DNA of 20,682 bases from the UHGV virus genome UHGV-0140731. One strand, given 5' to 3'. The stretch is from a virus. The notes under the pieces are model-generated. The model searched no databases. It had not been told where the DNA came from and saw only the letters and a program-made list of their open reading frames with translations. Each line of letters opens with the position of its first letter. Position 1 is the first letter of the stretch. The position numbers were made by a program, and so were the translations under genes. This document shows, one piece after another, positions 9,239 to 20,682 of the stretch.

Positions 9239-9319
9239 GATCTTATCGCCTACCGTTTCGGTTTAAGTTTTTCTTCCAGTTTCTCCAACAGGAAAAACGC
9301 ATAGGATTCAGTAAGCCTT

Positions 9320-10201
9320 TCAGCGTCCTGAATCGGTATACCCCCATACAAAACCAGGTTGGACACTAAGGTCTGATAGCTTTTCAATCCCCACCTGTGG
9401 AATGAAGTCGGTAGCCCGAAAGGGCACCCACAGACGGGTATACGCACCCTCTGTGGACTCCTTTTTATCCTGATTTGGGCATTTATGCGGCGGGAGACGA
9501 AGACGCATTTCACCTTTATCGATGTAGCACGGTAAACCATGTTCGAGCTTTTCATGAGCCAGTCGGATGTGTGCCGCCAGCTTCATAAATTCAGTATCAA
9601 TGGCCATCCGTTTAATCGTTTCATAACGACGCTCAGCCTGATCTTCACGAGTACCGCTAACATCGTTATAAAGCTCACACTGATAAGCGAATTCCCAAAA
9701 ACGCAAATCAACGATCGCTTCTTTGAATTCCGCGTCATCTTCAGGTGGCAATGCTGCACGGCGCATCTCCAGCATTTCCATTGCCCAACCATCAAGCGGC
9801 ACGATACGCCATTGATAAGGTACTCCCTCTACAGACACCTCAATATCGTCAATGAAAGGTTCCACTTCCAGGACCTGGATATCTTCAGCCAGAGCATTCA
9901 TATCGCAATCGTAATAATGCTCTTTACCGCAATGTTTACAGGTGTAGGTGAATGTCTCGACCGGTGTTTCACGGGAGCCGGTAAATATCCACCATAACGC
10001 GGTAATCCGGTCCTGCGCCGTCCATGTCAGGGGATCATGTTTCACGGGTTCAGCCAGCAAGGCTTTTAAATACGCCGTTGTCTGTTGTTCTTGTTCCTCC
10101 GGTGTTATCGAGTTGAAACGCATCGCATCAGCAATATTTGGCTGACGGAACTGGATCAATTCAGTTGGCCGCGATGGTAGCGGGAAAAGGGGTAAAAGCA
10201 T
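9320..10201 (-). CDS. Phage structural-module protein, unknown function (contains CxxC...C cluster)
   Basis: 293-codon ORF; ATG 10199-10201 with AAGGAG 5-6 nt upstream; CKHCGKEHYYDC motif. No family assigned. Confidence 0.5.
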   Translation of the reverse strand: MLLPLFPLPSRPTELIQFRQPNIADAMRFNSITPEEQEQQTTAYLKALLAEPVKHDPLTWTAQDRITALWWIFTGSRETPVETFTYTCKHCGKEHYYDCDMNALAEDIQVLEVEPFIDDIEVSVEGVPYQWRIVPLDGWAMEMLEMRRAALPPEDDAEFKEAIVDLRFWEFAYQCELYNDVSGTREDQAERRYETIKRMAIDTEFMKLAAHIRLAHEKLEHGLPCYIDKGEMRLRLPPHKCPNQDKKESTEGAYTRLWVPFRATDFIPQVGIEKLSDLSVQPGFVWGYTDSGR

Positions 10202-10215
10202 CCTTGCTCCTTAAT

Positions 10216-10827
10216 TCAAAGAGAAAAACTAAAGCCCAGAAGGGAAGCCAAAGAACTTGAGGATTGGTTAAACGTGCTGTGCAATGCGAAGGTCATTGGG
10301 AATGACTTAAATTCCGTAACCTGATCCCGCGCATAGGTGACATCGCCGGTAGTGACAGGGAATACAGTCATCTCATTTTCCAGTTTGGTTAAGCCGGAAG
10401 ACAGCAACCGATAAATACGCACATTGAGCAAATATTTAGACGGTATATTCCCGGTACCGTCTGGATTAATCACCCGACTTTTTGCCGTCTTAAACCAGTC
10501 CAAAACGAGGCCATCAACGGTATCCCTGACCATCATTGTTATCTGCCCAGGCGAACGCTCCGTTGGTTGAAGGATATTCCCTCCGCCGATTTTAATCGTT
10601 TCATATTCGATGCTGTAATCGTGGTAGGTAATGTCTTTGGCAAAGAAGTCTGCCCCCTCCAGTCCATCAACTTCGACAGAGAACTGCCATCCTTGCGCGA
10701 ACAACATTTTGTTCATGATGATTGACGTCAGCTTACCAATTTCCCGCTCACCAACGCCGGAGCCAAATAATGTCGTCGTTAATGCCGAAGATACATAAGA
10801 CTTTACTGAAGCAACATTAAGCCCCAT
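10216..10827 (-). CDS. Phage structural-module protein, unknown function
   Basis: 203-codon ORF; ATG 10825-10827 preceded by GGGAG; tightly packed with neighbours. Confidence 0.5.
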   Translation of the reverse strand: MGLNVASVKSYVSSALTTTLFGSGVGEREIGKLTSIIMNKMLFAQGWQFSVEVDGLEGADFFAKDITYHDYSIEYETIKIGGGNILQPTERSPGQITMMVRDTVDGLVLDWFKTAKSRVINPDGTGNIPSKYLLNVRIYRLLSSGLTKLENEMTVFPVTTGDVTYARDQVTEFKSFPMTFALHSTFNQSSSSLASLLGFSFSL

Positions 10828-10837
10828 ATCAGCTCCC

Positions 10838-11428
<591 letters not shown>

Positions 11429-11557
11429 TTAACCGATTCTACGAGTTGTCATTTGTTACCGGTCAGTCTACACATTTCAGATGCTGCGTTAAAAAATTCA
11501 AGTACTTCAAGTAGCACATCGTCATCAACACCCAGCCCCAAGATACGGTGATAAAAT

Positions 11558-12535
11558 TCAAGCCTTAAGAGGCTTTGTGTATGTTCGTGTAATCCAACCA
11601 GTAATAAACTCATCCCCTGATTTAACCTGCACGTAAAGCCATTGACGATCTTTCTTATCTAAAATAGCAACAATTGTGTTTTTGCCAATGCATTCAATCA
11701 CTTCACTATTTAAAGAAGGGCTGACATGTAATCTTACGTTATCACCAGTTATAAACCTAAAACCATTGAGATCTTCCCACTTAATTTCTGTGTTTTCTTT
11801 AATTAATTTTTGTTTTGATATTGGTGCATCCTCATATAGGGATACAGAATATGATTCTGTCTTGTGTATTTGCGATAAGATTTGTTCTTTTGCATAATCA
11901 GCAATGGCACCAAGCAACACTTCTGTTAAAAACCACATAATAATAAACTGAAGCGGGTGAGGGAGCGCCTTAAATGAGTCAATAAACGTCGAACTGGATT
12001 TATTTAATCCTTTGTCTTGAACATCACTTTCGTTGTGAGATGTTTCAATAGCACCTTCAACATAAGCCTGTGCAATTGATGAAAGACCTTGCTCCATTGT
12101 TCTATTAAATAGAGATGTCTTTTTTTCAATATATTGATTTTCTTGTTTTTTTATAATATCTTTTGTTAAATCATCGTAAGTTATATATTCTCGTAAATTT
12201 TTAAGTGTAGCCTCCATACTTTCCAAGCCAGCTTGTTTATTAAAAACTTCTATCTGGCTTTGTAATGACAAAGATTTTTCCGACTGTTTCTGAAAATTTT
12301 CAACATACTTACGGAAAAGATGGTTTATCTCATTCGTTTTTAGTGATGTGTTAAATTTTTTTTGAAGATAATTATCTAATATTTTTTGAGATGTTTTTTC
12401 CAAAACTATATGCAATAGATTTTGTTGCAAAAAATCAAGCGGGGTAGTAAGACCACCCAAACTCACTGATTTTGCTAAATTACTTAACTCGTTATATTTG
12501 GAGCTATTAATACTTGCCATCTTATTCGCCATCAT
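11558..12535 (-). CDS. AT-rich cargo gene: membrane protein with central TM helix and C-terminal SH3b-like domain
   Basis: 325-codon ORF in strongly AT-rich DNA; hydrophobic segment LQFIIMWFLTEVLLGAIADYA; C-terminal ~65 aa resemble bacterial SH3 domains (GDNVRLHVSPSLNSEVIECIGKNTIVAILDKKDRQWLYVQVKSGDEFITGWI). Exact start ambiguous (MMANKMAS). Confidence 0.55.
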   Translation of the reverse strand: MMANKMASINSSKYNELSNLAKSVSLGGLTTPLDFLQQNLLHIVLEKTSQKILDNYLQKKFNTSLKTNEINHLFRKYVENFQKQSEKSLSLQSQIEVFNKQAGLESMEATLKNLREYITYDDLTKDIIKKQENQYIEKKTSLFNRTMEQGLSSIAQAYVEGAIETSHNESDVQDKGLNKSSSTFIDSFKALPHPLQFIIMWFLTEVLLGAIADYAKEQILSQIHKTESYSVSLYEDAPISKQKLIKENTEIKWEDLNGFRFITGDNVRLHVSPSLNSEVIECIGKNTIVAILDKKDRQWLYVQVKSGDEFITGWITRTYTKPLKA

Positions 12536-13028
12536 ATTGTTTTAAACACCCGTCTTTTTTAGCTTCCTTGTAAATACTTGAAATACCATTAAGAGAGAAT
12601 GATGTGATTCGACGCGATCCGATATATACATCCATGTTTTTTTCTTTTGTGGCTGACGCTGACTTCCAAAAAGAATACCATTCCCTACGATTTGGAGCAG
12701 TGTTTTGCGTACCAATATTAAAGCTATCCGGACCAACAATTAAGGTAATTACATCAGCTTTACGAGAAATTGTATCGCGTGTAGAAAAATCAGCATTCTC
12801 TTTCCCTCCGCTTACATACAAATTTCTTCCAGCGATATGATCTTCGGAACCTTCCCTTGCTCCAGCATCACAAGAAAAGTTAATTGTATAGCCATCGTCA
12901 TTGGCTGCAGAAATTTCTCTCCACCCTTGCTCACCTCCTACCGTCCAATCGGTAGAACTTGCCATTGCTGATAATGGCAAGAAAGAGGGCATTAATAAAA
13001 AGCTATACAATGACTTATACAATTTCAT
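12522..13028 (-). CDS. AT-rich cargo gene: secreted/periplasmic protein (signal peptide), unknown function
   Basis: 168-codon ORF; ATG 13026-13028 with AAGGA upstream; N-terminal signal-peptide-like sequence MKLYKSLYSFLLMPSFLPLSAMA. Confidence 0.55.
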   Translation of the reverse strand: MKLYKSLYSFLLMPSFLPLSAMASSTDWTVGGEQGWREISAANDDGYTINFSCDAGAREGSEDHIAGRNLYVSGGKENADFSTRDTISRKADVITLIVGPDSFNIGTQNTAPNRREWYSFWKSASATKEKNMDVYIGSRRITSFSLNGISSIYKEAKKDGCLKQYDGE

Positions 13029-13116
13029 ATTTTTATCCTTTTGGTTTTAGGTATTACAGGCATAGTCCATATTGTTAGATCCACTATGCCCAGAGAATTT
13101 AATATTATTCATTAAA

Positions 13117-13608
13117 TTATGGAGCTACACCCGGCCCCCTAGCTCGTTCTTCAAGCGTACCCTGTACGTTTTGATGGCGCATTCCCGGGGCATTTCTGAT
13201 TGAGTCAATGCCATTTCTTCCAACATCTTCTTTATTGACGGCATTGCTCGCCACCAGCACCCCCCAGCTAGGGATAGCAAAATCAGGAGCGGTTTCGCAT
13301 GCCTTTACCATATAATCGAAAGTGCTTCGATTGATCTCGTTCGCGTCCGGATTTAACAGGCGAGAATATTGATATTTAGCATTTTCGTTGGTTGCGACTT
13401 TATACAGTTCTTGCTGCACCATCGCTTCAGAAAGTTTAAGGCGTTTCATGTCTGAAAGTAACTTCTTGCGCATGGATTCGTCTTGGCTGACAGCAAAGCC
13501 GTAAACGTGCCCAAGGTATTTCGTATAATCGGTACAAATCTCCTTTACACTTGATGCTGCATTAACAGTCCCAGCCATAAATAATAACGGTAGTAATAGT
13601 TTTCTCAT
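13117..13608 (-). CDS. Secreted protein with a Sit-related C-terminal tail (chimeric)
   Basis: Start placed at ATG 13606-13608 (MRKLLLPLLFMAGTVNA, GGTGAGG upstream) rather than the longer track start. The last ~45 aa (SNAVNKEDVGRNGIDSIRNAPGMRHQNVQGTLEERARG) are homologous to a segment of the Sit-like protein (GNAVGVNDLVNKFMNGRGMRREVVQGTLEERARG). Confidence 0.55.
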   Translation of the reverse strand: MRKLLLPLLFMAGTVNAASSVKEICTDYTKYLGHVYGFAVSQDESMRKKLLSDMKRLKLSEAMVQQELYKVATNENAKYQYSRLLNPDANEINRSTFDYMVKACETAPDFAIPSWGVLVASNAVNKEDVGRNGIDSIRNAPGMRHQNVQGTLEERARGPGVAP

Positions 13609-13704
13609 TATAACCTCACCTGCCTTATAACCCATTTAGGGTACATATTTTCGCCTTTAAAAAAAAGAGGTTATTAGATCCATTTGTGTATTTATCATAC
13701 AATT

Positions 13705-13721
13705 AATGCTCTAATAAATTT
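13705..13721. promoter_or_regulatory. P1 C1-repressor-type operator (AATGCTCTAATAAATTT)
   Basis: One mismatch to the P1 C1 operator consensus ATTGCTCTAATAAATTT as I recall it; located between divergent transcription units, upstream of the immI-like promoter. Confidence 0.55.
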
Positions 13722-13759
13722 GTATTTTTAAGTCGCGAATGCTATCTTTTCGCATCATA

Positions 13760-13788
13760 TTGACCTTTTAATCGTTCAGGCTTATAGT
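13760..13788 (+). promoter_or_regulatory. sigma70 promoter candidate (TTGACC-17-TATAGT) for the c4/icd/ant-like operon
   Basis: -35 TTGACC at 13760-13765, 17-nt spacer, -10 TATAGT at 13783-13788, read directly from the sequence. Confidence 0.55.
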
Positions 13789-13919
13789 TCCGCCGTCGTA
13801 GCAAATTCTGCGACCGGGTTTAGCAGCCTGAATACTTACGCGGACAACCGCAGATTTCCGATATTGCGGTATTTTTGTGTCCGTAAACCACGTTACGCCC
13901 GAATTATGGTGGGGCGTGA

Positions 13920-13997
13920 TGGGGAGGCTTCGGCCTGCTGGTTTCGTAAGTGCCAGTCTGCTAACCCCGTCACGTCCTGCCACCTGTTTAGCAGCGG
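13920..13997 (+). ncRNA. Candidate c4-like antisense RNA (immI-type translational repressor)
   Basis: Contains a UUCG-tetraloop hairpin (aggc-ttcg-gcct, 13926-13937) and a 7-bp stem (ctgctaa 13958-13964 / ttagcag 13988-13994). Two short elements, cggcct (13931-13936) and tcgtaagt (13944-13951), are complementary to adjacent target sequence 14016-14028 (acttacgaggccg) covering the icd Shine-Dalgarno. Boundaries are approximate. Confidence 0.4.
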
Positions 13998-14033
13998 GTC
14001 GCAGGTTGTTTATCAACTTACGAGGCCGTAACT

Positions 14034-14255
14034 ATGGTTAATGCCAATCCGTGCGCACGCCAAGAATTCATCTGGCGTTTCTATTCCTGTAAAAAACACC
14101 ACTATCACTTCGTTATCGCAGCAACAGAAGACGAAGCACGCTCTCAATTGCCTGATGGCCCCTGCATTTTTACTGCCCGTTTTTCAACTAACTCGCGCAA
14201 TTCACTTAGTTACTGGAGCCTCCCCTTCTCTGCCGACGTTCAGGGGGGTTTATGA
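14034..14255 (+). CDS. Icd-like small protein (P1 immI 'interference with cell division' analogue), translationally coupled to ant
   Basis: 73-codon ORF; GAGG 8 nt upstream of ATG 14034; stop overlaps the ant start as ATGA (14252-14255). Size and position match P1 icd as I recall it. Confidence 0.55.
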   Translation: MVNANPCARQEFIWRFYSCKKHHYHFVIAATEDEARSQLPDGPCIFTARFSTNSRNSLSYWSLPFSADVQGGL

Positions 14256-15289
14256 AAAAACCTCTCGTCACCCGTAATGAAATAGCCGAAGCGATCGCCC
14301 TGCATACAACCTGTATGCCGACACGGGAGATCCCCGGCGCAATTGCCAACTATTTCATGATAACCAGGCGTTTTTATACCCGAACAGATAAGGCTGTGAT
14401 CAACAGGCTACTGATAGCCGAGATCAGGGATTATTTGATTGAACAAGGACGTCTACGTTACGCAACAGTGGCAGCAGAAATGAGAAAGGAGGCGCGCAGA
14501 ATGACCGGTAATAATTTGAATGTTGAAAAACCAGCACCTGTTGCTTCAGCTACGCCAGCACCAGCCCTGAATGTCATCCCCAACACCGGAGACACAATCG
14601 ACAGCCAAACATTGTTGAAGATGGTCAATGAGGCACGGAAATTATGTAGCGAAAAACCAGTTCGCAACAATGATTTCATTGCCAGAGTTAAGGATGAGCT
14701 TGAAGGAGAAACCTACGAAATTTTCGTAGGTCAAAAAAACGGCGCAGAAATAGATATTATAACCATGACCTACAAACAAGCCCTGCGAGTTGCCGCGCGC
14801 GAGTCAAAAGCGGTCCGCCGTTCGCTGATCGACAAACTAGAAGAATTGCAGCAGGCAAACTCCCCTACCCCATCGATCCCCCAAACATTACCAGAAGCCC
14901 TACGCCTGGCTGCCGAGTTGGCAGAACAGAAATTGCAGCTGGAACAACAGCTGGTGGCCGCAGCCCCTAAAGTCGATTTTGCCGACCGGGTATCAGTGGC
15001 TAATGGAATCCTGATCGGGAACTTTGCAAAGGTCGTTGGACTTAAGCAAAACGCCCTTTTCTCATGGTTGCGCCAGAACGGCATTCTCATGGCTTTTGGT
15101 GCGCGCAAAAACGTACCGCGCCAGCAGTACATTAACGCCGGGTATTTCACGGTGAAAGAAGTGGTGCTGGATGATGAAAATGGCTACCAGATACGGCTGA
15201 CGCCCCAATTAACGGGTAAAGGCCAGCAGTGGTTAACTCGCAAGCTACTTGATGCTGGCTTGTTAAAACCAGTGGCGTCCTTGTCTTAA
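14252..15289 (+). CDS. ant: Phage antirepressor Ant (C-terminal KilAC/ANT domain)
   Basis: 345-codon ORF; C-terminal ~140 aa (IPQTLPEALRLAAELAEQK...GNFAKVVGL...GKGQQWLTRKLLDAGLL) form the ANT/KilAC domain and are paralogous to the C-terminus of the downstream KilA. Confidence 0.8.
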   Translation: MKKPLVTRNEIAEAIALHTTCMPTREIPGAIANYFMITRRFYTRTDKAVINRLLIAEIRDYLIEQGRLRYATVAAEMRKEARRMTGNNLNVEKPAPVASATPAPALNVIPNTGDTIDSQTLLKMVNEARKLCSEKPVRNNDFIARVKDELEGETYEIFVGQKNGAEIDIITMTYKQALRVAARESKAVRRSLIDKLEELQQANSPTPSIPQTLPEALRLAAELAEQKLQLEQQLVAAAPKVDFADRVSVANGILIGNFAKVVGLKQNALFSWLRQNGILMAFGARKNVPRQQYINAGYFTVKEVVLDDENGYQIRLTPQLTGKGQQWLTRKLLDAGLLKPVASLS

Positions 15290-15698
15290 CGTATTCAGAC
15301 CAAGATTTGCCATAAATTACAGGCATGTGTACGATATGCCCAACCCTGTTTTTCAGGGGAGGCGCAACGTTATGCGGGGGTTATGAACTCCTGGATGCGT
15401 AGCCTCCAGACAGAAAAAACCCTCGCCACAACGTTGCATGGAGGCAACCAGCGAGGGCATTCCTTATGTCTGATCAACAAGAGGATAGCCGCAAGCAGTT
15501 GCTGTTGCAAGTGTGCGGAGCTTCGTAATGACTCTTCAAAAAGCTTGCAAGTGGATTGTGACCAACATCATTGTTCCTGTCATCATCGGAGCGTCAAGTT
15601 CTGTGTTGGCATCAGTGATTGCCTCACTTCTCCACATTGCATAACAACATTGGAGGGCGTTAGTTCCGCAGTGTAACAGCAGCGCGTTGCGCCCGAAC

Positions 15699-15734
15699 AG
15701 GCCACAGGGTAAAACCTGTGGCCTTTTTCGTTTT
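15699..15734 (+). terminator. Rho-independent terminator
   Basis: aggccacagg-gtaaaa-cctgtggcct (10-bp GC-rich stem) followed by ttttcgtttt. Confidence 0.65.
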
Positions 15735-15843
15735 AGCCAGCCACAAATCCACATTGAAAAACGCCTTATACAAAAAAACCTGCCAGCGAACTGACAGGTT
15801 TCTGAGCAGATCGACCAACCCGATCTGGATCGGACTGGAAAAA

Positions 15844-15860
15844 TTTGCTCTAATAAATTT
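15844..15860. promoter_or_regulatory. P1 C1-repressor-type operator (TTTGCTCTAATAAATTT) upstream of kilA
   Basis: Shares TGCTCTAATAAATTT exactly with the site at 13705-13721; lies ~70 bp upstream of the kilA start and overlaps a weak candidate promoter (TTGCTC-17-TAAGTG). Confidence 0.55.
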
Positions 15861-15929
15861 CGTTTTCTAAGTGCAAAGAATCACCATTTCGAGCTGGTGA
15901 TTGAAGGTTGATGCAAATTTGGAGAAAAA

Positions 15930-16730
15930 ATGCAACAAACATTCAATGCGGATATGAATATATCAAACCTTCATCAAAATGTCGATCCTTCAACCACTCT
16001 GCCCGTTATTTGTGGTGTTGAAATTACGACCGACCGCGCTGGCCGTTACAACCTTAATGCTCTACACAGAGCGAGCGGACTCGGTGCCCATAAAGCGCCA
16101 GCTCAATGGCTAAGAACGCAGTCAGCCAAACAGCTCATCGAAGAGCTTGAAAAAGAAACTATGCAGAATTGCATAGTTTCGTTCGAAGGTCGTGGCGGCG
16201 GCACTTTTGCCCATGAATTGCTCGCTGTGGAATACGCAGGCTGGATTTCTCCCGCATTTCGGCTGAAGGTAAACCAGACATTTATCGACTATCGAGCCGG
16301 AAGATTACAACCTGCTATTCCGCAGAGTCTCCCTGAAGCTCTCCGTTTGGCTGCCGACCTGGCAGAGCAAAAGCAACGGCTGGAGCAAAAAATGCTTATG
16401 GATGCACCTAAAGTCGAATTCGCCGAACGCGTTGCTACCGCCAGCGGGGTTCTAATCGGCAACTATGCCAAAGTGCTCGGCCTGGGCCAAAACTATCTCT
16501 TCACCTGGTTGCGTGATAACGGAATTCTGATCGCAACCGGTGAACGCAGGAACGTCCCCAAACAAGAATACATATCCCGTGGGTACTTCACCCTCAAAGA
16601 AACCGTGATCGATACAAGCAACGGAAGCAGGATTTCTTTCACGACTCGTATAACCGGCAAAGGTCAGCAGTGGCTAATGAAGCGATTGCTTGATGCTGGT
16701 GTGCTGGTACCTGTCGCGGCCACGCGCTAA
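15930..16730 (+). CDS. kilA: KilA (KilA-N domain plus KilAC/ANT C-terminal domain)
   Basis: 266-codon ORF with GGAG 5 nt upstream; C-terminal domain paralogous to Ant; size and position (operator, then kilA, then a 281-codon gene) match the P1 lytic replicon as I recall it. Confidence 0.7.
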   Translation: MQQTFNADMNISNLHQNVDPSTTLPVICGVEITTDRAGRYNLNALHRASGLGAHKAPAQWLRTQSAKQLIEELEKETMQNCIVSFEGRGGGTFAHELLAVEYAGWISPAFRLKVNQTFIDYRAGRLQPAIPQSLPEALRLAADLAEQKQRLEQKMLMDAPKVEFAERVATASGVLIGNYAKVLGLGQNYLFTWLRDNGILIATGERRNVPKQEYISRGYFTLKETVIDTSNGSRISFTTRITGKGQQWLMKRLLDAGVLVPVAATR

Positions 16731-16759
16731 CAGACGTAGTAAGAACCACCAGCATTGTA

Positions 16760-17605
16760 ATGCTGGCTAAAGTCACTTTCCTGAGCTGTATAACGATGAG
16801 CGATTTTACTTTTTCTGGCTATGAATTGGCCTGCTTTGTAACACACTCCGGTCTATCCCGTAGCGCCGGGCATATCCTGTCGCAATGTGCAAATCTCGCG
16901 GCAACAACCAGTGAATACTTCATTCACAAGCCTCACCGCATGATTGCGGCAGAAACTGGTTATAGCCAATCAACCGTCGTTCGCGCATTCCGTGAAGCTG
17001 TAAACAAAGGAATCCTGTCGGTAGAGATTGTTATCGGCGAGCACCGTGAACGTCGCGCTAACCTGTACCGGTTTACACCATCCTTTTTGGCCTTTGCTCA
17101 ACAAGCCAAAAATGCGCTAATTGAAAGCAAATTAAAGATCTCTTCAGCCGCAACCAAGGTTAAAGCAGTTCTCGCTAAGACATTGGCTTTATTTGATTTT
17201 TTATCCACACCCCCATGTCAAAATGATACCCCCTCCCCCTGTCAGGATGACGTGGCAATAAAGAATAAGAAGTCACAAGTTAAAAAAACAAAAAGATCAG
17301 TTTCCGGCGGTGCCGGAACGACCAGACTCAAAAAATTGACTTCATGGATCGCTGAGGCAAAAGCAAAGGCTGACAATCTGCGGTTATCCAAAAAACGCGC
17401 TCAAAAACATGAGTTCAAGCAGAAAGTAGAGGCGGCAGCGCGGAAATATGCTTACCTGAAGAACAAGCGTTCTCCTGATATTGGCGGGGTATCAAACTTC
17501 GATAATCTGCCGCATTGCATGACGGTAAACGAAGCTCTTAATGCGGTTTTAGCCAAAAATAAAGATAACGAACAATGGGGTATACCGGCAGGATTCAGAG
17601 GGTGA
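16760..17605 (+). CDS. repL: RepL-like lytic replication protein (HTH-containing)
   Basis: 281-codon ORF immediately after kilA; helix-turn-helix-like segment AAETGYSQSTVVRAFREAVNKGIL. Assignment is by context and size; weak Shine-Dalgarno, start uncertain (ATG 16760 or 16796). Confidence 0.5.
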   Translation: MLAKVTFLSCITMSDFTFSGYELACFVTHSGLSRSAGHILSQCANLAATTSEYFIHKPHRMIAAETGYSQSTVVRAFREAVNKGILSVEIVIGEHRERRANLYRFTPSFLAFAQQAKNALIESKLKISSAATKVKAVLAKTLALFDFLSTPPCQNDTPSPCQDDVAIKNKKSQVKKTKRSVSGGAGTTRLKKLTSWIAEAKAKADNLRLSKKRAQKHEFKQKVEAAARKYAYLKNKRSPDIGGVSNFDNLPHCMTVNEALNAVLAKNKDNEQWGIPAGFRG

Positions 17606-17689
17606 TAGATTGCTCTAATCTGGAGTCACCTGGCGTTTTCAGTTTGAGGTCGGAGATGCAATCTGATTTTTTACAGTTAGCGATCGCTT

Positions 17690-17902
17690 TTGCAGCGATA
17701 TGTTTGTATTGGCTTCTGTGTATACATGATCAGCCGAAAAATGCTTGTTGATATCGACCGCAAAGAACGAGCAGAGGAGATCTTAGTATGGATTTTCTTT
17801 GGCGCGGTCTGGCCATTAGGGATCATGTTTGCTGCAACATTTCTTCTGATGTGGATATTCACCCTTCCAGGTGATTTCTATAGAAAAAAAGCCAGACATT
17901 GA
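17690..17902 (+). CDS. Small hydrophobic protein (possible two-TM membrane protein), hypothetical
   Basis: ORF with hydrophobic stretches (ILVWIFFGAVWPLGIMFAATFLLMWIF); no clear Shine-Dalgarno; could start at internal ATGs. Confidence 0.3.
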   Translation: MQRYVCIGFCVYMISRKMLVDIDRKERAEEILVWIFFGAVWPLGIMFAATFLLMWIFTLPGDFYRKKARH

Positions 17903-18099
17903 TACAATCGTTGCGGGTGCTTGAGGCTATCTGCTTCAGGCATTACCCGAAAAGCAGATAGAAGAAAGCCCCAGATAACATTACGCGTCCTGCAAGACGC
18001 TTAACATTAATCTGAGGCCAATTTCATGCTAGACACATGTAGGTTAGCCTCTTACGTGCCGAAAGGCACGGAGAAGCAGGCTATTGTTAACACCAAGCT

Positions 18100-19600
18100 G
18101 TAATGTCCCCTTTGAACCATTCTAAAATGTCCCCAGACAATTCTCTGGGGGATTTTTCATGATCAAAGAGACTGTTACGATGAGTCATAAGGAACTCCAC
18201 CGACTTCAGATTATTCAGGAACAAGCTGCGGCACGCATTGGCATTTCTATTCGGCAGGTTAAACGTCTGGTGCAACGGTATAGAAATGAAGGGCCTTCTG
18301 GTCTGGTTTCCCACCGACGTGGAAAGCGTCCTAATAATTCCTTTTCTACTGAATTCAGAGCAACAGTAATTTCACTCCTCAAAGGCCGTTACGCTGATTT
18401 TGGACCTACGTTTGCGTGCGAAAAATTGCGCGAGATACACGGTTTATCTTTATCCGTTGAAACTCTCAGAAAGTGGATGATAGAAGAGGGGTTATGGCGT
18501 GAACGCCGTCGTAAAATTGCCCGTATATATCAACGCCGCATGCGACGACCATCTTACGGTGAACTGATCCAGATTGATGGCTCACCTCATGACTGGTTTG
18601 AAAATCGAGGCCCCAGATGTACACTGATCGTTTTCATTGATGATGCCACCAGTGCGTTGATGGCGTTGCGTTTTGTGCCTGCTGAAACAACCCGGGCTTA
18701 CATGGAAACCCTCCGGGGTTACCTTAATGATCATGGCGTACCGCTCGCTCTCTACTCTGATAGACACAGTATATTCAGGGTAAATAACCCAGAGCGGGAA
18801 GGTGAGCTGACCCAGTTCACTCGTGCGATAAAGACACTGGGCATCGAGCCAATCCATGCCAACAGCCCGCAGGCAAAAGGGCGGGTAGAGCGCGCCAATC
18901 AGACACTACAGGACAGGCTGGTCAAAGAAATGCGGCTTCAGAATATCAGTGATATTGAAACAGCAAATGCATGGTTGCCGACCTTTATTGAAGCCTATAA
19001 CAACCGGTTCGCTACGTCGCCTCGTACTACTGATAATGCTCATCTTGATGTGCACCATTCTGAAGAGGAACTGGGTTATATCTTCAGCCTACAGGCGAAG
19101 CGCGTTCTGTCTAAAAATCTCACTTTCCAGTACAAAAGCAGTGCGTTTCAGGTACGCAGTGAGGGCCGGGGATATCGACTTAGGCATTCGGTTGTTACTG
19201 TATGCGAGAACTTTGACGGTGAAATTAACGTTCTGTATGACGGGAAAGCGCTGGGCTGGGAAAAGTATGTTGATGGCCCGGAGCCTATACCACCGGATGA
19301 TGAAAAGAGTGTCCATGAACGAGTGGATAATGCCCGTATTGATTTACGCTCAAAATACTATGTTAAACCTAAAGCTGACCATCCCTGGCTTACGCGCCGA
19401 ACGCAAAGTCATCAGCAAGTTAAGCCCCCGAAGTTACCTAAAAAGAAGCCTGATCCCGATAAAAAAGATTGAAACCAAGATCGATTCGGTTGAGTGCATA
19501 TCCATTCATAGGGTAGATTCTTAAGTCGCGTTTCTGGTGTTCATTTTCGGGTGGTTTGTTACTTGTTTTACCGGGGATATGCCAGAAACGCGCTGAGTCA
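18100..19600 (+). mobile_element. Insertion sequence carrying a DDE transposase (ends not defined)
   Basis: Single transposase ORF flanked by non-coding DNA; no clean terminal inverted repeats could be defined by eye, so boundaries are approximate. Confidence 0.3.
18159..19472 (+). CDS. DDE transposase (rve/integrase-core type; IS481- or ISNCY-like)
   Basis: 437-codon ORF with N-terminal HTH (IGISIRQVKRLVQRY) and catalytic-core motifs (LIQIDGS..., LYSDRHSIF, SPQAKGRVERANQTLQDRL); GGGGGA upstream of the ATG. Confidence 0.8.
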   Translation: MIKETVTMSHKELHRLQIIQEQAAARIGISIRQVKRLVQRYRNEGPSGLVSHRRGKRPNNSFSTEFRATVISLLKGRYADFGPTFACEKLREIHGLSLSVETLRKWMIEEGLWRERRRKIARIYQRRMRRPSYGELIQIDGSPHDWFENRGPRCTLIVFIDDATSALMALRFVPAETTRAYMETLRGYLNDHGVPLALYSDRHSIFRVNNPEREGELTQFTRAIKTLGIEPIHANSPQAKGRVERANQTLQDRLVKEMRLQNISDIETANAWLPTFIEAYNNRFATSPRTTDNAHLDVHHSEEELGYIFSLQAKRVLSKNLTFQYKSSAFQVRSEGRGYRLRHSVVTVCENFDGEINVLYDGKALGWEKYVDGPEPIPPDDEKSVHERVDNARIDLRSKYYVKPKADHPWLTRRTQSHQQVKPPKLPKKKPDPDKKD

Positions 19601-19908
19601 GTCTGGGCGGTGCGCGTAATGAGGCGTTATGGTAAATAGCCTATGCTAATGTCCGCTAAGAGCAAGAAGCGGAAGTTGGCAGTTTTGTGGACTGTCCCCA
19701 CAAAAGTGACTACAGAAATAGTTGCAATTCATAATTGATCATGGGTTGTCAGTTAAACTCGTGGCGATTTAAATAGACTAATTGGGAGGGCGTCCATTAC
19801 TTATATCTTGTAATGTTAACTATCAGAAATGATACAAAGATAATATGTCTTTAAAGAAAAGGCTGATGGCGAAAAGTGGCCCGATGAGGGCCACAATACG
19901 GCTGTCAC

Positions 19909-20241
19909 TTAGACGTAAATATCAATGGTGCCAGCGGTATTTGTATCGTCTTTTTTCTCTTCTTTTTTATCAGGCTGAACTGTCGCGTCTTCATTCTTTT
20001 TCTCTGCCTGCTGCCTTAACAACTGCTCCAGTTGAGCCCAGAGGCTTTCAATTTGCTTCTGTACCAATGCAGCCATTTCTTTTTTCTGCTGTGTCGTCAT
20101 CCCCTCTTCCGATGAGATTTTCCCAAGCTTTTCAGTCAGCACCTGAATTTGTCTTGTGATTTTGGCTATTTCTGATGTTCCTTCCGGGGCGGAGTTGTTT
20201 GAAATAACGGTTGAGGTATTTCCCTGAATTGTGACAGACAT
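19909..20241 (-). CDS. flxA: FlxA-like protein
   Basis: 110-codon ORF (MSVTIQGNTSTVISNNSAPEG...IDIYV) with AAGGAG upstream; size and sequence character match E. coli FlxA as I recall it; preceded by a near-consensus sigma28 promoter. Confidence 0.6.
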   Translation of the reverse strand: MSVTIQGNTSTVISNNSAPEGTSEIAKITRQIQVLTEKLGKISSEEGMTTQQKKEMAALVQKQIESLWAQLEQLLRQQAEKKNEDATVQPDKKEEKKDDTNTAGTIDIYV

Positions 20242-20264
20242 AGATTTCTCCTTTTAAAAAAGCA

Positions 20265-20291
20265 CTATCGGCATGCACAAAAAAATCTTTA
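20265..20291 (-). promoter_or_regulatory. sigma28 (FliA) promoter candidate for the flxA-like gene
   Basis: Minus strand reads TAAAGATT-N11-GCCGATAG, against the consensus TAAAGTTT-N11-GCCGATAA. Confidence 0.55.
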
Positions 20292-20372
20292 ATCGTATTT
20301 CTTGTGTCATTAATTGTTTGATGTTCAGATTGTTTTCCTCGCGGGCTGGCGCGCCTCAGAAAGTAAAGCTTG

Positions 20373-20400
20373 TTGACAGGGGTAAACGTTCGGCAATAAT
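20373..20400 (+). promoter_or_regulatory. sigma70 promoter candidate (TTGACA-16-AATAAT), divergent from flxA
   Basis: Perfect -35 hexamer at 20373-20378 and -10-like AATAAT at 20395-20400; the downstream target is unknown because the contig ends. Confidence 0.35.
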
Positions 20401-20654
20401 TTTCTGCCGCATGCGGGTGTTGCATAAAACGTGTTACGTTCCTTTATCGACAGGTCAGGTCACCGCTCACCCGCCGACGAGAAAGCAACACTGACATGCT
20501 AAAGCAAAAAATAGATGAATAAGTTGAGTTGTGCATATGTAGCCTGACCGTCACAAAGTATATGGTGTCTGTACCAGTAAGATGATGGCCGGACTCTTTA
20601 AAAACGAGCTGACCTGCACAATACAGGATGGACTTAGCAATGGCTGCTCCTGGC

Positions 20655-20682
20655 CTGTCTCTTATACACATCTCCGAGCCCA
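20655..20682. other. Illumina Nextera / Tn5 mosaic-end adapter sequence (contig-end artefact)
   Basis: Exact match to CTGTCTCTTATACACATCTCCGAGCCCA, the Nextera read-through adapter. Confidence 0.9.

Follow-up and report, generated by a model that had tools for sequence, protein, structure and literature searches.

Our analysis indicates that the DNA under study, UHGV virus genome UHGV-0140731 (the whole stretch of 20,682 nucleotides is called the window below), is very probably part of a P1-like (Punavirus) plasmid-prophage, and that its two complete 17-mers, at 13705-13721 and 15844-15860, are orthologues of the P1 operators Op51 (Oc4) and Op53 (OrepL), which would place the genes behind them under the control of the C1 repressor. 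The promoter overlap, the position, the sequence identity and the conservation of both operators are directly observed.

The origin of the window is evident from the nucleotide comparison. Across positions 2028-18084 it is 96-98% identical to P1, P7, RCS47 and SJ46 (about 97% overall), and hundreds of approximately 95-kb P1-like plasmids from E. coli match the same part at 96-98%. The stretch of 13.7-17.6 kb shows an identity of 96-98% to P1 and P7, and icd, ant1, kilA and repL are all intact in the window. The order c4 RNA - icd - ant1/2 - kilA - repL is found together with P1-level identity, as in Punavirus members. Among the phages, the PLSDB plasmids and the 5,426 complete E. coli genomes, no record covers 80% or more of the whole window. 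The first part of the window (1-2028), the region of the tail-fibre C-terminus and its chaperone, has no single record matching it well; it is a mosaic, the pieces of which match the tail-fibre modules of different P1-like plasmids at 90-95% identity, and the left contig end falls within the region that is invertible in P1 (C segment).

The operators were analysed against the P1 reference annotation (GenBank AF234172), which has three "phage repressor C1" sites in the homologous stretch. A published account (PMC8546580) gives the consensus ATTGCTCTAATAAATTT, counts 22 dispersed operators and describes the roles of Lxc and Coi; the annotated P1 operators differ from this consensus by 0-5 mismatches. 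The 15-mer repeat reported in the initial annotation, TGCTCTAATAAATTT, has two exact copies in the window, 13707-13721 and 15846-15860, and both lie on the plus strand. The full 17-mers are AATGCTCTAATAAATTT at 13705-13721 and TTTGCTCTAATAAATTT at 15844-15860; each is an asymmetric 17-bp site that departs from the consensus by one mismatch, just as had been claimed. These two sites are the only matches to the consensus in the window at up to three mismatches, against a mean of 0.12 in shuffled sequences, and 1 of 100 shuffles reached two matches. The 9-mer core TGCTCTAAT is present three times (13707, 15846, 17611), the shuffle mean being 0.16 and none of the 100 shuffles containing three. The number of sites is well beyond chance, and homology to operators annotated in P1 accounts for all three. 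A position weight matrix (PWM) built from 18 of the 20 annotated P1 operators (Op55 and Op99b were omitted) gave 26.4 bits for the Op51 copy, 24.5 bits for the Op53 copy and 11.5 bits for the next best position of the window, which lies at 12096 inside a coding region; neither the PWM nor the consensus scan revealed any further operator above 11.5 bits in the window beyond the two known sites.

Both 17-mers are orthologous to a named P1 operator and overlap a sigma-70 promoter that serves an early or immunity operon. The alignment agrees in sequence and position with Oc4/Op51 for the immunity genes (c4-icd-ant) and with OrepL/Op53 for the lytic-replicon genes (kilA-repL), as the earlier reading of them as C1-type operators had it. 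That reading also had the sites framing these genes, and in this respect it has to be corrected: Op51 and Op53 are promoter-overlapping operators, not boundaries. The first operator and the immI operon behind it consist of the following features:

13705..13721, plus strand: C1 operator Oc4 (former Op51), identical to P1 protein_bind 48140-48156
13719..13748, plus strand: promoter P2c4 (former P51a), C1-controlled, placed by the P1 annotation (L001 14060-14089), to which the window aligns identically and without gaps
13760..13788, plus strand: promoter P1c4 (former P51b), TTGACC-17-TATAGT, P1 annotation, without operator overlap
13782..13834, plus strand: a1/b1 targets of the C4 antisense RNA, in the leader (Rfam RF03163 c4-a1b1, 56.2 bits)
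13902..13987, plus strand: C4 antisense RNA, the immI "repressor" of ant (Rfam RF01695, 70.8 bits)
14034..14255, plus strand: icd, cell-division inhibitor needed for ant expression (open reading frame; syntenic with P1 icd and with an Icd-like CDS of the plasmid p1337c)
14252..15289, plus strand: ant1/ant2 antirepressor (PHROG 63 anti-repressor Ant, E = 2e-101; synteny with P1 ant1)

The -35 element of P51a (13719-13725) overlaps the 3' end of Op51 and its -10 element, TATCTT, lies at 13743-13748; P51b was also found independently by the promoter scan, with 10 of 12 matches. In 64 of the 65 related loci positions 3-17 of Op51 do not vary, and the variation is found in positions 1-2 and in the upstream flank, which occurs in at least three unrelated sequence types. 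The second operator belongs to the lytic replicon, the features of which are as follows:

15809-12, 15822-25 and 15828-31: three GATC (Dam) sites of the kilA regulatory region, the P1 "Dam methylation site 1-3", all conserved
15826..15854, plus strand: promoter PkilA (former P53), P1 annotation via alignment
15844..15860, plus strand: C1 operator OrepL (former Op53), identical to P1 49810-49826
15930..16730, plus strand: kilA, 266 aa, of the same length as P1 kilA (open reading frame; PHROG KilAC/anti-repressor families)
15957..15985, minus strand: antisense promoter PaskilA (former P53as), P1 annotation
16760..17605, plus strand: repL, 281 aa, lytic replication initiator with oriL inside (open reading frame; P1 annotation)

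The -35 element of P53 is TGGATC (15826-15831), and its -10 element TCTAAT (15849-15854) is located within Op53. The promoter scan also detected P53as, as TCGACA-17-TATATT with an extended -10 TG. The conservation sample comprised 80 IMG/VR loci found via RepL, which is 94-99% identical to theirs at the amino-acid level, and for Op53 P1 and the window were added (n=82). Of these 82 sequences, 80 have the identical Op53 17-mer, and the 40 nt preceding it occur in 19 variants. Invariant operators amid variable flanks are the footprint that would be expected of functional sites.

What these sites would do can be proposed from the P1 literature, from which we infer that C1 binds and represses at both of them. 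In P1 the dispersed asymmetric 17-bp operators are bound by C1, and Coi and Ant antagonise C1 (PMC8546580); C1 at Op53, which overlaps P53, represses kilA/repL (PMC9948254). In a lysogen C1 would be made from the ImmC region, which is expected about 45 kb away and beyond the window, and it would bind each of the asymmetric 17-bp sites with the aid of the corepressor Lxc, whose strengthening of C1 binding is also recorded in the P1 lxc annotation. Since the -10 element of P53 lies inside Op53, bound C1 would occlude this promoter and block the transcription of kilA and repL, and oriL inside repL would stay silent. At Op51 C1 would sit over the -35 element of P51a, and c4-icd-ant would lose its additional, inducible transcription. 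The second promoter, P51b, would remain on and supply the C4 antisense RNA, leaving the antirepressor Ant silent; the blocking of icd/ant expression by C4 RNA from P51b is known from the immI literature and is given in the P1 annotation as well. Inactivation of C1 by Coi or Ant would then derepress both operons together.

Such a mechanism requires a repressor from elsewhere, and the initial annotation had placed a C1-like repressor gene outside the window. Our search agrees with it: P1 C1 (283 aa) has no tblastn match in the window (best E = 0.46), so c1 is absent from it, and relatives do carry the gene. The complete relative p1337c, which agrees with the window in its Op55 allele and in the replacement of sim, encodes a "phage repressor protein C1" with 99.6% amino-acid identity to P1 C1, and its c1 is situated approximately 46-50 kb from these operators. 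There are 14 exact TGCTCTAAT cores in p1337c against about 0.7 expected, the same three sites included. Among the PLSDB plasmids, 702 have c1 and 516 have the kilA-repL segment. From relatives only, we infer that c1 would be present in the source replicon. The fragment could also be a c1-less remnant, or the contig chimeric, which is conceivable because the right contig end joins DNA resembling a chromosomal prophage. The features of this end are:

17915-18085: sok RNA (Rfam)
18159-19472: ISNCY/IS1202-like transposase, inserted at the hokD start codon
19909-20241, minus strand: flxA

The stretch with sok, the IS and flxA (17912-20654) matches a Qin-like chromosomal prophage at 99.5% identity. 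The repL-sok-IS junction is absent from the complete E. coli genomes and the PLSDB plasmids; it is present in an 8.4-kb IMG/VR contig (L021), which was the only IMG/VR match to the junction-specific pattern, and the assembled genome contigs gave no match to this pattern. The junction is either a rare recombinant formed via the approximately 170 nt of shared sok or a recurrent short-read assembly chimera. The homology to L021 stops at 20654, where L021 itself continues into relB/relE. The contig closes with CTGTCTCTTATACACATCTCCGAGCCCA (20655-20682), which we take to be the Nextera/Tn5 mosaic-end adapter; this piece is untrimmed adapter and not biology.

The third site deserves a separate discussion. 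A partial site after the repL-like stop had been claimed at 17608-17618; it does exist and it starts 3 nt beyond the repL stop (17603-17605), but the coordinates were wrong by one:

17609..17619, plus strand: remnant of Orlf (former Op55), ATTGCTCTAAT, followed by the unrelated CTGGAG (alignment to P1)

Op55 of P1 is ATTGCTCTAATTATAAC and positions 17609-17625 of the window read ATTGCTCTAATCTGGAG. The first 11 bases are shared and stand at the same position after repL, but the last 6 bases of P1 Op55 and all of the DNA downstream of it are unrelated to the window. The homology to P1 stops exactly after base 11 of Op55 because rlfA-rlfB-pmgF was replaced: about 1.8 kb in P1 corresponds to about 0.7 kb in the window, with a small ORF and hok/sok. 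The third site thus consists of the leftmost 11 bases of Op55, which outlasted this replacement. Among the relatives the window type of Op55 is the common one (approximately 66 of 81), and the P1 type was found in 15 of 81. The small ORF after repL (17656-17901) carries a 1-nt insertion at about 17696 in comparison with p1337c (GCAGCGATATG vs GCAG-GATATG), which shifts the frame of what is an 81-aa reading frame in p1337c and leads to early stops, so that it is either a pseudogene or the product of a sequencing error.

The score of the third site points to a relic. The left 11 nt contribute 19.6 bits and the right 6 nt take away 16.0, which leaves 3.6 bits, a value reached by about 13 positions per shuffled window; for comparison, the PWM gives P1 Op55 15.7 bits and Op99c, the weakest of the annotated monovalent operators, 9.0. 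All of its 6 mismatches to the 17-bp consensus fall in the right half. As this PWM score is at the level of the background, we treat the third site as a relic, and 17609-17619 is most likely non-functional or at best very weak. C1 may still bind there weakly, since poor right halves are also seen in several of the accepted operators.

One could argue that 17609-17625 is a working, weak C1 operator which selection has kept in most P1-like plasmids, and that its role is to regulate or insulate the small ORF and hok/sok, or to act as a roadblock to read-through from repL. The left 11 nt are indeed a perfect half of the consensus, every window-type allele seen has an intact core, the right halves of the annotated P1 operators Op55 and Op99c are also non-consensus with 5 mismatches each, and Lxc, according to the P1 annotation, enhances C1 binding to all operators. 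However, none of the 6 positions of the right half matches the consensus, the total is below the minimum of the annotated monovalent operators, and the diversity of the relatives is only 1-3%, so that an invariant 11-mer is no evidence of selection. Additionally, no promoter found by the promoter scan overlaps the site. We therefore regard a working operator at this place as unlikely. Less probable still, and in our view quite doubtful, is the narrower proposal that the 11-base Op55 core is a minimal half-operator which recruits C1 with Lxc and couples the hok/sok cargo or the read-through from repL to the lysis-lysogeny switch. If it were true, the left 11 bases would suffice for recognition by C1 and cargo modules would be plugged in behind pre-existing operators. 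The known rlf variable region, a place of cargo exchange, begins on its left side exactly at the Op55 breakpoint.

The operator cores at both edges of the conserved block lead to another explanation of the repeats, which returns to the notion of framing: the C1 operator cores could be dispersed short-homology linkers for the exchange of modules, with the operators framing a mobile cassette of immI and the lytic replicon. The conserved block from c4 to repL extends from position 3 of Op51 to position 11 of Op55, the sim and rlf regions flanking it are known hypervariable regions (PMC9603915, PMC6906374), and an insertion described at P1 1957-1982 (PMC6906374) coincides with Oref (1962-1978). 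The whole-genome comparison of P1 and p1337c nevertheless speaks against it, because 1 of 30 ends of homology blocks lies within 25 nt of an operator, where random placement gave a mean of 0.39 (P = 0.32); operator cores as general recombination junctions were rejected for want of enrichment at these ends. Also, the homology to P1 runs 236 nt further upstream of Op51 in p1337c, a simpler explanation of the edge at Op51 is that the operator and promoter, which serve a conserved operon, are under purifying selection, and the junction at Op55 looks like a single event that was inherited by descent. Thus we consider this explanation highly improbable. As for chance AT-rich similarity or generic promoter elements in place of repressor sites, both sites are AT-rich and overlap -10/-35 hexamers, but this reading is practically eliminated by the counts of exact repeats (two 15-mers, three 9-mer cores) against about 0.1-0.2 expected from the shuffles, by the identity and synteny of the sites with experimentally named P1 operators and by their invariance among relatives with variable flanks.

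The comparison with P1 itself shows how closely the switch regions are preserved and where the modules around them have changed. At Op51 the 17-mer and the DNA through P51a and P51b are identical in P1 and the window, and the gene order of immI (C4 RNA, icd, ant) is unchanged. The C4 loops and all four of their target boxes, on the other hand, differ: the window has CTGCTAA for a' and CGTAAGT for b', and P1 has CTGTCAA and CACTAAC. These changes are compensatory, and therefore the immI specificity of the window is not that of P1. Among 65 loci compared over the 13782-14030 region we observed two a' types and four b' types in at least seven combinations, with the targets always matching; the immI specificities look modular, as in the heteroimmunity of P1 and P7. 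Upstream of Op51, the divergent sim genes of P1 are replaced in the window by three other genes. The replacement of simA, simB and simC covers 11558-13635 on the minus strand and encodes an SH3-domain protein of 325 aa (389 aa in p1337c), a protein of 168 aa and a protein of 172 aa with a weak match to a PTP-like phosphatase; the PHROGs to which the three are assigned have no known function. The simABC and rlfA-rlfB-pmgF regions are hypervariable in P1-like phage-plasmids (PMC9603915, PMC6906374), and the sim replacement sits in what is known as variable region 4 of P1-like plasmids.

The region between ant1 and P53 differs from P1 by an insertion of approximately 490 nt (15290-15780), which P1 lacks and which only 6 of 80 relatives have. 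It ends in a strong intrinsic terminator (15699-15724). A 97-aa ORF inside it (15383-15676) was considered as a gene and rejected, having no Pfam or PHROG match and an odd composition rich in Cys, His and Ser, and it is probably non-coding. Four base changes relative to P1 are found between the -35 element and Op53 (GGGTCAG to GGACTGG), in a patch that is polymorphic among relatives. This part of the P53 spacer (15833-15838) is hypervariable and is the source of most of the 19 upstream variants (n=82); the -35 hexamer, the Dam sites and Op53 around it are almost invariant.

Taken together, Op51, Op53 and the truncated Op55 of this contig are already known P1 biology that has been rediscovered here, and nothing about them is new. 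The antirepressor and the lytic replicon of the contig would be under C1 control as in textbook P1, so the value of the assignment lies mainly in annotation, and both operators together with the Op55 remnant are usable as sequence markers of P1-like elements. The lytic replicon illustrates this likeness: the operator, the -10 and -35 elements and the three Dam sites of P1 Op53/P53 are all the same in the window, and so are the kilA and repL genes downstream, P53as as the antisense promoter and the spacing up to the start of kilA.
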